IMG/VR virus record: IMGVR_UViG_2671180770_000021
Direction: 5' to 3' (one strand)
Length of the DNA: 2,813 nt
Origin: a virus
Taxonomy: Duplodnaviria; Heunggongvirae; Uroviricota; Caudoviricetes
The position numbers are program-made. This document shows positions 1 through 2,813 of this stretch, piece after piece (within the stretch, counting starts at the first letter, position 1; each line of letters starts with the position of its first letter).

Positions 1-2813
1 GAGTGCTATCTCCGAATATGGAATCGAACCTGCAAATCAGGTAATAAAAAAACCGCCATCAGGCGGCTTGGTGTTCTTTCAGTTCTTCAATTCGAATATT
101 GGTTACTTCTGCATGTGCTATCTGCGCCCATATCATCCAGTGGTCATAGCAGTCATTGATATTCTCCGCTTCGATAACTCTGTTGAATGGTTCTCCATTC
201 CATTCACCTGTGACTTTGAATTTCATTAAGTTTCACCTGTAAAAAAAGGAGCCGAAGCTCCTTTGATATTAAAATTCGAATTGTCTCGCCCGAAGGCTTT
301 TTAACATTGGTCTTGCCCGTTCGAAAATGGCGCTTGTCTGGTCAATTCGTGTTGCCTCCCTGAGCAATGCGTCTCTGTTTTTCGTCACCGTGTAGAAAGT
401 CTCAAACGCGATGTCATACAGCTTGCTCGCGTATGATGAGTTCAGTTCCTTCAATATCGGATACAGGCGTTTGCTGATGTCCTGTGCATTCTCCATCTGT
501 ACCTGCATGTAGCAAAGGAGGATGATTTCCTCGTCTGTGAATTGCTGCTGGATCTGCGGCTGCATGTTGCGAAGTTTCTTTTCGCACGCGATGAAGTATC
601 GGCGTATCTGGCGGCCTTTTTCGTTACGTTCAACCATCGCAAGCTCTTTGGCTGTGTCGAGGGTGAGGTGGTAATCCTTGCGGCGGCGGCCTGGAGTTTT
701 CGCCAAATTTGGCGAAAATAGAATGTAGTCTAAATTTTCTACGAATCCATACTCGTTTAGCCTGGCCCGTATCCAGTTAGAAAAATCTTTACCTACCTCT
801 AAAAATCCATGCAAATCACGCGCGTTCACCAGAAGCGTAGGTTCATTTGAGATTGTACCTTCAAACACAGGGATGAGTTGAGTGGTCATGATGACCTCCT
901 TTGGCTTTTTTCGAGAAATGCCACCACAAGATGTGGTGCCGGGAGGCTCGAAACGGCCCAAAAGATACCGCGGACTTATTCCCCTTGCGGGTGTTGTATT
1001 CGTCGCCCTCCCGACATTGATCGGGGATGTGACCGCACACTGTGCTATCACTGAATAACAGGCATAAAAAATCCAACACTGACGGGGTTGGTTTAATCCG
1101 CTTTTGGGAGGTTTTCGAGGCCTCGGCGCGGAGTATAGTCAGTATTGGACGCAGTCGTCAACCATCGCAAGCTCTTTGGCTGTGTCGAGGGTGAGGTGAT
1201 AGTATTTGCTACGGCGATCGCCTCCTCGACCTTTGATTTCCCGATTTGGGGAAACCAAAATATAGTCCTGATTTTCAACGAAACCATATTCAGCAATGCG
1301 TTCTGTAATCCACGATGCAAAGCGTTTACCTACCCCAAGAAAAGTATGTAAATCGCGAGCATTAACGAGAAGAGTGGTTTCGTTGGCGATAGTGCCGTTG
1401 AATACGGGGATGAGTTGACTGGTCATTTTTATGTCCTTTGCATTTGTTCAGATAGCCCTGTGTTCAGCAGGGCGGTCAGGTACTTGAACACCGTGCAAAG
1501 TCGGCCCGTATCCTTAACCTTTCGGTTGTTTTTCGGTATACGCGCTACCCGACCATATCTGAGAAATGGACATAAAAAAGCCGCATGACTGACGGGTGCG
1601 GTTTCCGCTTTGCAAGGTGTGTTCAGCACCATGAAGCGGAATATAGCCCCGTTAATGCGGATTTGTCAAATCATGTGGTCTTTATCTTGCTGTAAGCCGC
1701 GCCATTCGGTCTTTTCCCCCCAGATTTGGGGAAAACTACCTTGTCAAAATCATGCAGCCTTTCGTTCTCCTTCGATGAGTTCCTCGATCTTGTGCACTCC
1801 CGCCTCGTTGTAGCGAAATGTCTCGACCTGCTTGTCACTGTGCGCCGATTTGTCGATGAACCACTTCCCGTACTTTTCTGTTTTGAGCATGTAGGTGTTG
1901 GCAATGCGCCCTACCTTGTTGGCTGAAATGCCAAGCATGGTGCCAACCTCCGACGCAGAGTAGTGATGTTCATCAATGACCGGAAGAGGGATTGCACTAA
2001 AGCCGACGACGGGATTAATCAGGCTGGCGGCAACGACCTGTTTAGCTTCCGGTGCGAGGTGAGGGAGGAAGTCGAAGAGGTCTTTCATTGTGTCGACGGT
2101 CATTTTCAATGCGCGTGCCTTACGGAATTCTTCAAGGCCATCCGGTGATTTCTTCGTGGTCGTTTTTTGTTGCAACTGCTGTTGCATTGATTCAAGTTTG
2201 TCGACCAGCGAACGACGGACGGCTTTCGACTCACGTGCGGCGACGCGCAGGGCTTGCTTGTAGGTCATCACTATAACCACCTGATCCGCTCCGCCTTTTT
2301 TCTTATCCATGGGGGGTACGAAAATTTCGTAACCCTCCCCCCTCAAGCTCATCTTTGATGCGTGCAATGAAGTCGTTGTTGCGTACTTCTTTTTCGCCTC
2401 GCAGTCTCCGCGCCTCATTAACCATTTTCAACAGCATCTGGCTGTCAATTGTTGCAGCCGGAAACGAAGACTGATTTGCAATATTGTTAATCATGTATTC
2501 TGTCCTTTTCAGATAAAAGAAATCCCCGCCAATGCGAGGATTGTTATTCATTGCTGATACTCACCTTAATCTCAACATTTCGCAGCTTTAGCTCTACTGG
2601 CAGGTCTGACTTTCCGGTTAATGCTAATGCGAGATTTTCTGGAGTAATGAGAGCAGTTATTGTTTTCCCCCTCGCCAGACGAATAATCATTCGTATCTCG
2701 CAATCGTCACATGCTCCCGGTCGAACAATTGAGATTTGTCCGTTCATCTCACTCTCCTTTGATGCGAATGCCAGCGGCGCGCTCGGCTTCACTTTGTTCC
2801 CAAAACCACTTGT

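Follow-up and report, generated by a model that had tools for sequence, protein, structure and literature searches.

Examination of a 2,813-nt stretch of Caudoviricetes DNA (IMG/VR record IMGVR_UViG_2671180770_000021; hereafter the window, meaning the whole stretch that was analysed) revealed two copies of a small RNA (sRNA) of the sRNA-Xcc1 family, one ahead of the antirepressor gene antA and the other ahead of a truncated copy of it. Each RNA is flanked on both sides by sites complementary to the same two of its parts, and the last of these sites lies at the ribosome-binding site (RBS) of the downstream gene. The window probably carries two tandem units of a c4-like antisense immunity module placed on a different RNA scaffold, and the element is best read as a member of a known Rfam family of unassigned function that, by its architecture, represents a variant within the c4/CA class of antisense immunity RNAs.

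Each unit consists of a sigma-70-like promoter, a site a1 in a hairpin loop, a site b1, an intrinsic terminator and a three-way-junction RNA of ~85-90 nt, followed by a hairpin, a site a2, a site b2 overlapping the Shine-Dalgarno (SD) sequence, and the antirepressor gene, which is full-length antA in unit A and truncated in unit B. Two single-stranded parts of the RNA, the loop of hairpin P3 (b') and the linker J3/1 (a'), are complements of both site pairs, a1/b1 and a2/b2, and in the mechanism that we propose they would recognise these sites. Bound to a2/b2, the RNA would block ribosome binding and keep the antirepressor off; bound to a1/b1 of the nascent leader, it would favour upstream termination as a feedback, or be titrated there. 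Feedback via termination is a property of the CA RNA of N15 and the CI RNA of P4. The hypervariable loop would determine the specificity, and so the immunity type. The RNA is probably excised from a read-through transcript; it ends in a tRNA-like NCC tail.

Structure of the sRNA-Xcc1 family RNAs

Both RNAs match the Rfam family RF02221 over its full length and above its gathering score of 53 bits: copy A at 930..1015 with 73.4 bits and copy B at 1466..1554 with 69.3 bits, on the minus strand like all the other parts of the two units. The fold is the three-way junction of the family, with a closing helix P1, a P2 capped by a GNRA loop and a P3 hairpin. In copy A, the 5' arm of P1 (1015..1007) is followed within 930..1015 by P2 with its GCAA loop, by the hypervariable P3 loop b' (966..957), by the J3/1 linker a' (UUUCGAG, 953..947), by the 3' arm of P1 (946..938) and, directly after it, by the tail ACCA (937..934). 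Copy B (1466..1554) has a P1 of different sequence that lacks CCUCC (GGUCGGGUA/UACCUGACC), a P3 loop b' reading ACUUUGCA (1501..1494), a linker a' reading GUGUUCA (1491..1485) and a GCCC tail.

RNAalifold applied to a plain MAFFT alignment recovered P2 and P3 alone, and for this reason a covariance model was built and its own alignment used; 111 matches were collected, and the covariation test covered 101 distinct relatives. Across these relatives 92.6% of the cells are paired, and compensatory changes on both sides were found for 18 of the 20 pairs, including all the pairs of P1, a result equalled by none of 500 shuffles. Among close homologs, identity amounts to 96.9% in the scaffold against 48% in the P3 loop. 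The NCC tail directly follows P1 in 91/99 and 85/96 sequences. The tail is part of a 3' flanking hairpin, CACCACA-UCU-UGUGGUG, found at 922..938 as originally predicted; relatives of differing sequence have a hairpin at the same position, and it folds at -4 kcal/mol or below in 65% of them compared with 27% of shuffles.

The family extends from Enterobacteria, Pasteurellaceae, Pseudomonas, Xanthomonas and Xylella to Desulfovibrio and beyond. It was first described in Xanthomonas campestris, where the type member appears as an 88-nt RNA on Northern blots (PMC2996969), and a member in the enterohaemorrhagic Escherichia coli strain EDL933 yields RNA-seq read numbers comparable to RNase P RNA and hardly any ribosome footprints (PMC5331693). 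In the literature these RNAs are viewed as trans-acting virulence sRNAs with no known target, and it is mentioned in passing that APSE phages have one copy ahead of an ORF6N gene. No mention of the flanking a1b1/a2b2 sites or of the link to antirepressors was found in the searchable literature, and a 2025 review of phage sRNAs names c4, sar, IsrK and 24B_1 for antirepressor control and omits the sRNA-Xcc1 family (PMC12197685). The microRNA-like 24B_1 of Phi24B, which has been linked to d_ant, was considered and set aside as a different RNA: it is a long hairpin encoded between lom and vb_24B_43.

Complementarity of the RNAs to two flanking sites

In unit A, a promoter-like site at 1132..1161 (TTGACG, 18 nt, TATACT) precedes a hairpin at 1108..1124 made of GAGG (1124..1121), the loop CCUCGAAAA and CCUC (1111..1108). 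The loop presents a1 (CUCGAAA, 1119..1113), the complement of the linker UUUCGAG, and is followed by b1 (CCCAAAAG, 1101..1108), perfectly complementary over its 8 nt to the P3 loop CUUUUGGG and with a conserved CGG next to it. A hairpin resembling an intrinsic terminator (1066..1091; CCAAC-CCCGUCAGU-GUUGG, then AUUUUUU) separates a1b1 from the sRNA. On the other side of copy A, a second CUCGAAA, likewise complementary to the linker, forms site a2 (909..915) in the loop of a small hairpin (GGCAUUU..AAAAGCC), and b2 (CCAAAGGA, 897..904) can pair with the P3 loop UCUUUUGG(G). The SD sequence AAGGAGGU was confirmed at 901..894, ahead of the ATG at 889..887, and shares 5 nt with b2.

Unit B contains the same four sites in different sequence, and the original prediction of two cassettes alike in logic rather than sequence holds. 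Its promoter-like site (1640..1669; TTGACA, 18 nt, TATATT) has 11/12 matches; a1 (UGAACAC, 1625..1619) lies in the loop of GGUG..CACC, b1 (UGCAAAG, 1614..1608) is complementary to the loop of copy B, and the terminator-like hairpin at 1574..1601 reads CCGCA-CCCGUCAGUCA-UGCGG followed by CUUUUUU. Downstream of the RNA come a2 (UGAACA, 1450..1445, with a further copy at 1466..1460) and b2 (UGCAAAG, 1442..1436), which adjoins an SD-like GGA ahead of the ATG at 1426. Predicted duplex energies lie between -20.8 and -35.4 kcal/mol for cognate pairs and between -14.8 and -19.6 kcal/mol for cross pairs of A and B, so that cognate duplexes are 5-15 kcal/mol more stable.

The same complementarity was found in two independent comparison sets, 85 distinct RNAs from viral contigs and 82 from bacterial contigs with one genome per species, using as a measure the longest perfect complement (in nt) to the cognate as opposed to a non-cognate flank. 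Upstream, a1 gave 6.80 vs 4.92 in the viral set and 6.63 vs 4.85 in the genome set, and b1 gave 7.14 vs 5.08 and 7.27 vs 5.05. Downstream, the corresponding values were 6.56 vs 4.84 and 5.67 vs 4.59 for a2, and 6.79 vs 4.84 and 6.20 vs 4.78 for b2. Between the P3 loop and the SD region the match reached 7.04 nt for cognate compared with 3.68 nt for non-cognate pairs (p = 1.6e-47). The end of b2 lies 5-12 nt ahead of the start codon in 68/72 relatives, with a mode of 9-11, and 63/70 cases show an overlap of b2 with the SD itself. In close homologs of unit A (GER2, WGPS6, Rac-SA53, L060, L077, L078) the scaffold stays constant, and a1, a' and a2 change together, as do b1, b' and b2; GER2, for example, has UCAGAA / UUCUGAA / UCAGAA in the first series and CUAAAG / CUUUAG / CUAAAGG in the second.

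The rest of the leader is also shared by the relatives. A promoter-like site occurs 22-28 nt before b1 in 51 of 77, against 2% of shuffles; a1 is in a hairpin loop in 53/60; CGG directly follows b1 in 59/77; and a T-run, mostly 21-30 nt past b1, is present in 66/77, with a hairpin preceding the U-run. CGG (1098..1100 in unit A, 1605..1607 in unit B) is accompanied by a CCCG found in every terminator loop (1083..1086 and ~1593..1596). The two could form a pseudoknot, a pairing beyond the reach of covariation testing because both sides are invariant. No LexA-box-like sequence was seen by eye near the promoters, where no formal search was made.

As for the adjacent genes, an RNA match at E <= 0.001 was obtained for 72 of 80 antA loci, and in almost all of these one copy ends ~30-40 nt before the antA start. 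The downstream gene belongs to the AntA, KilA-N, Bro-N, Rha, ORF6N or P22_AR_N type in 44 of 69 cases. The prevailing view in the Xanthomonas and Xylella literature would make these RNAs host-directed, trans-acting virulence sRNAs whose proximity to ant genes is incidental. Against it, the RNA is hypervariable only in parts that change in step with two flanking sites, at 160+ loci in many taxa, and the downstream genes are consistently of the antirepressor type; we regard this explanation as extremely improbable. The module proposed here would give a function to an orphan and widespread family that recent papers still treat as host-directed virulence sRNAs.

Fate of the predicted anti-SD switch

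The leader of antA had originally been predicted to be a structured regulatory RNA, which the sRNA-Xcc1 match and the covarying structure bear out. The mechanism envisaged was a switch in cis, in which an anti-SD element, CCUCCCG (946..941), would have two alternative partners, CGGGAGG (1013..1007) as an upstream decoy and AAGGAGG as the real SD. The motifs do exist: CCUCCC is present on the minus strand at both 946..941 and 1111..1106, and CCTCCC occurs six times on the two strands of the window against a mean of 0.96, a count reached by none of 200 dinucleotide-preserving shuffles. The SD-like CGGGAGGGCG is also there, at 1013..1004, one base away from the 1014..1005 first given. Nor is an enforced CCUCC:GGAGG fold energetically prohibitive, at -78.6 kcal/mol compared with a minimum free energy (MFE) of -87.3 kcal/mol.

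The pairing of CGGGAGG with CCUCCCG is real and maintained by compensatory changes, but it constitutes the closing helix P1 of the sRNA, whose 5' arm contains the supposed decoy and whose 3' arm contains the supposed anti-SD, and it is constitutive rather than one position of a switch. Complementarity between the 3' arm of P1 and the SD stays at background (3.60 nt for cognate against 3.41 nt for non-cognate pairs), contrary to the claim that the anti-SD covers the real SD. Among the 26 relatives whose P1 arm has CCUCC, a single one has a GGAGG SD; CCUCC is missing altogether from copy B and from many relatives; and in close homologs the SD context follows the P3 loop and not P1. The second CCUCCC (1111..1106) is explained by the GAGG...CCUC hairpin, being the 3' arm of the a1 hairpin together with the first bases of b1. 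The anti-SD switch is therefore highly improbable, because it is the P3 loop and J3/1 that complement the RBS and the upstream site. What the original prediction had observed is confirmed and its interpretation is supported in part: the logic of one element with alternative partners, a decoy-like site upstream and the real RBS, stands, with the elements misassigned, the alternating element being a'b' and not CCUCC.

Pairing at b2 might instead activate antA translation, for instance by opening an inhibitory structure. Translation activation is reported for IsrK and anrP of the Gifsy-1 prophage, and a2 is held in a small hairpin whose 3' arm belongs to b2; the dual role of IsrK as sRNA and mRNA is also noted in the 2025 review (PMC12197685). 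A duplex overlapping the SD in nine tenths of the relatives should, however, occlude 30S binding, and the predicted fold of the processed mRNA tail leaves the SD unpaired when the RNA is absent. We consider activation very unlikely, and repression would be the outcome of pairing at a2/b2.

Comparison with known immunity RNAs

The closest parallel is the immI region of phages P1 and P7, in which a small structured RNA is encoded ahead of the antirepressor operon, in the same orientation. There, c4 blocks the RBS of the ant operon and sets the heteroimmunity of P1 and P7 (PMC12197685). As with c4, a' and b' complement upstream a1/b1 and downstream a2/b2, b2 lies on the RBS of the first gene, a few bases set the specificity that results in heteroimmunity, and the RNA ends in NCC(A). 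This arrangement of two antisense elements and two site pairs, the downstream pair reaching the RBS at the head of the antirepressor operon, characterises the c4 type. These features of c4 were reportedly established by Citron and Schuster in 1990 and 1992 and by Hartmann in 1995.

The scaffolds differ. The RNA described here has a P1 of 9 bp and an internal loop in its GNRA-capped P2, whereas c4 has a 17-bp P1 and a UUCG hairpin; moreover the present phage is lambdoid (of the Shiga toxin, Stx, type) and not P1-like, and the first gene is antA itself where phage P1 has icd. The topology of C4 and sRNA-Xcc1 is nevertheless alike, comprising P1, a tetraloop-capped hairpin, an antisense-loop hairpin, a single-stranded linker and an NCC tail. 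The C4 model (RF01695) found nothing at E <= 1 when the whole window was scanned, nor at E <= 10 in 880..1680, while N15 scores 78.8 bits with the same tool. Neither c4-a1b1 (RF03163) nor isrK (RF01394) matched 1016..1161 or 1555..1669 at E <= 10, and the sole isrK match in the window, at 46..106, scores 18.3 bits against a gathering score of 50. The leader is analogous to the c4-a1b1/isrK arrangement of a1 in a loop, b1 and a terminator.

The immA region of N15, read with the same tools, presents a promoter, an a1 hairpin loop, b1, an intrinsic terminator (matching the isrK model), a C4 RNA and the ant operon, the succession of a1 in a loop and then b1 being our own reading; it differs in the RNA family and in its genes, icd/antA/antB. 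The CI RNA of P4 with seqA and seqC is likewise an immunity RNA processed from a leader, and it pairs with two flanking sites in its own operon; it differs by acting solely at the level of transcription termination, and P4 is not known to carry an antirepressor gene. Finally, the sar RNA of P22 also blocks the ant RBS by antisense pairing (PMC12197685), but it is transcribed from the opposite strand as a true cis-antisense RNA, and differs in this from a structured RNA that is encoded upstream in the orientation of its target.

Probable action in trans and standing of the proposed module

Maturation of the c4 RNA of phage P1 is carried out by RNase P. For the RNAs of the window, indirect evidence points to processing from the operon transcript, possibly by the same enzyme, and to repression in trans. 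A purely cis-acting leader, in which a'b' would pair with a1b1 to turn translation on or with a2b2 to turn it off and no processed trans RNA would exist, has some arguments on its side. All the partners are on one predicted transcript, and of three mutually exclusive states predicted for the unprocessed leader, a1b1:a'b' pairing in cis is the MFE fold at -87.3 kcal/mol, with the enforced sRNA fold at -71.4 and the enforced anti-SD:SD fold at -78.6 kcal/mol. Several observations speak for trans action instead: a terminator stands between a1b1 and the RNA in most relatives, the Xanthomonas type member is a discrete 88-nt species, the EDL933 member is abundant, the NCC tail is conserved, and the RNAs remain intact in units with truncated or missing target genes. 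The CA RNA of N15, according to what Ravin et al. are said to have reported in 1999, is processed from the leader, acts in trans and causes premature termination. c4 acts in trans too (PMC12197685). We judge a purely cis mechanism unlikely and retain the module with a processed, trans-acting RNA.

Some points weigh against that module. The genome-set p-values for the four sites, 1e-17 to 4e-45, overstate the independence of the cognate/non-cognate comparisons because the compared sequences are related, and in the same set the a2/b2 matches are weaker than those of a1/b1. The b2 duplex of copy A has just 8 bp, one of them a G-U pair that is required. About a third of the downstream open reading frames (ORFs) are without a Pfam match, several being ~80 aa long. 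The architecture is equivalent to that of c4 with homology unproven, because the C4, c4-a1b1 and isrK models give no match. The unprocessed leader favours in silico the cis a1b1:a'b' fold over the sRNA fold, and by this difference in energy a purely cis mechanism is possible. The case for this element is, moreover, wholly computational.

If the proposed module is correct, the phages with this leader, several of them Stx2a-converting, would have an RNA immunity determinant in control of their antirepressor, a matter that bears on prophage induction and on cross-talk between prophages. The family would also constitute a natural programmable scaffold, in which the frame is constant and the loop and linker set a two-site specificity.

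Genomic setting and gene content of the window

Both ORFs of the window are on the minus strand. Its database matches place the window in a lambdoid prophage of E. coli: the top E. coli genome matches have ~96% identity to it, and the phage matches include Stx2a-converting phages, in which the segment adjoins int/xis. The leader (885..1135) is found at an identity of at least 99% in 41 phage records, several Stx2a-converting phages among them. The antirepressor gene of unit A (269..889) codes for a 206-aa protein with AntA and P22_AR_C domains, relatives of which carry the annotation antA/AntB or Ant. The truncated copy of unit B (1139..1426) codes for 95 aa with the AntA domain only and terminates within the promoter of unit A, whose -35 hexamer starts at 1161 inside the 3' end of this ORF; its counterpart in Stx2a_F451 is annotated as an N-terminal pseudogene. 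Both products pass the Pfam cutoff for AntA/AntB (PF08346), with 93.7 bits for 269..889 and 91.0 bits for 1139..1426.

The truncated and full-length antA sequences diverge within the -35 TTGACG of unit A (1161..1156), and the segment that they share is marked by a 59-nt repeat of 90% identity (1139..1216 and 630..688). Because of this divergence inside the -35 and of the repeat, the sequences suggest that whole units are swapped through recombination in the conserved 5' region of antA. The upstream unit carries different RNA types in otherwise near-identical prophages (L003, L012 and the window). A third AntA-like coding remnant (…VVFPKSGGKRPNGAAYSKIKTT*), also present in L012, was noted at 1700..1745 directly upstream of the unit B promoter.

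An in-frame GTG at 1051 would lengthen antA to 260 aa and carry its reading frame across the sRNA. With the RNA structure, the SD and the ATG at 889 all conserved, such an extension is very likely an artefact, and it could mislead gene callers.

Tandem cassettes

Of the 80 antA loci, some twenty contain the RNA in two or three copies spread over no more than ~2.7 kb. The loop and the a2/b2 sites of unit B recur unchanged in other phages (L076), where they precede an antA of full length. On this ground, units with an intact sRNA and a truncated or missing antirepressor may tentatively be seen as immunity-only cassettes, that is, a library of sRNAs that would silence in trans the antirepressors of heteroimmune phages. 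We would hold with the same reserve that the antirepressors targeted might be those of co-resident or superinfecting phages and that new specificities might be acquired by exchange at the 5' region of antA.

A further example would be one locus (L153:7572-9496) with five tandem sRNA-Xcc1 units spaced by ~382 nt. The P3 loop differs from unit to unit, b1 and b2 match it in each, and an identical ORF start comes after every one of them. This array resembles the cluster of five sXF RNAs in Xylella fastidiosa (PMC12189769).

Other sequence features

The end of the window at 1..106 contains a terminator (69..46, minus strand) followed by sequence similar to the spacer found after the unit terminators (repeat family D3). 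A sequence resembling a tRNA T-arm, GGTTCGATTCC, is located near 20..30 on the minus strand, and ARAGORN detected no tRNA in the window. As this end adjoins torI and dsdC in the closest genome, it may be the remnant of an attachment site.

A conserved hairpin is embedded in the sequence coding for the AntA domain, at 697..718, 1233..1256 and 1713..1737; in the full-length gene (697..718) the hairpin forms a perfect 22-nt palindrome, TTTTCGCCAAATTTGGCGAAAA. A 9-bp stem, taken from the MFE fold of each sequence, occupies the same place in 26 distinct antA homologs, its innermost pair being 177-180 nt from the ATG, and both its sides change together while the encoded peptide differs. The best 30-nt segments have energies of -6 to -18.6 kcal/mol, compared with ~-4 to -9 kcal/mol in shuffles.

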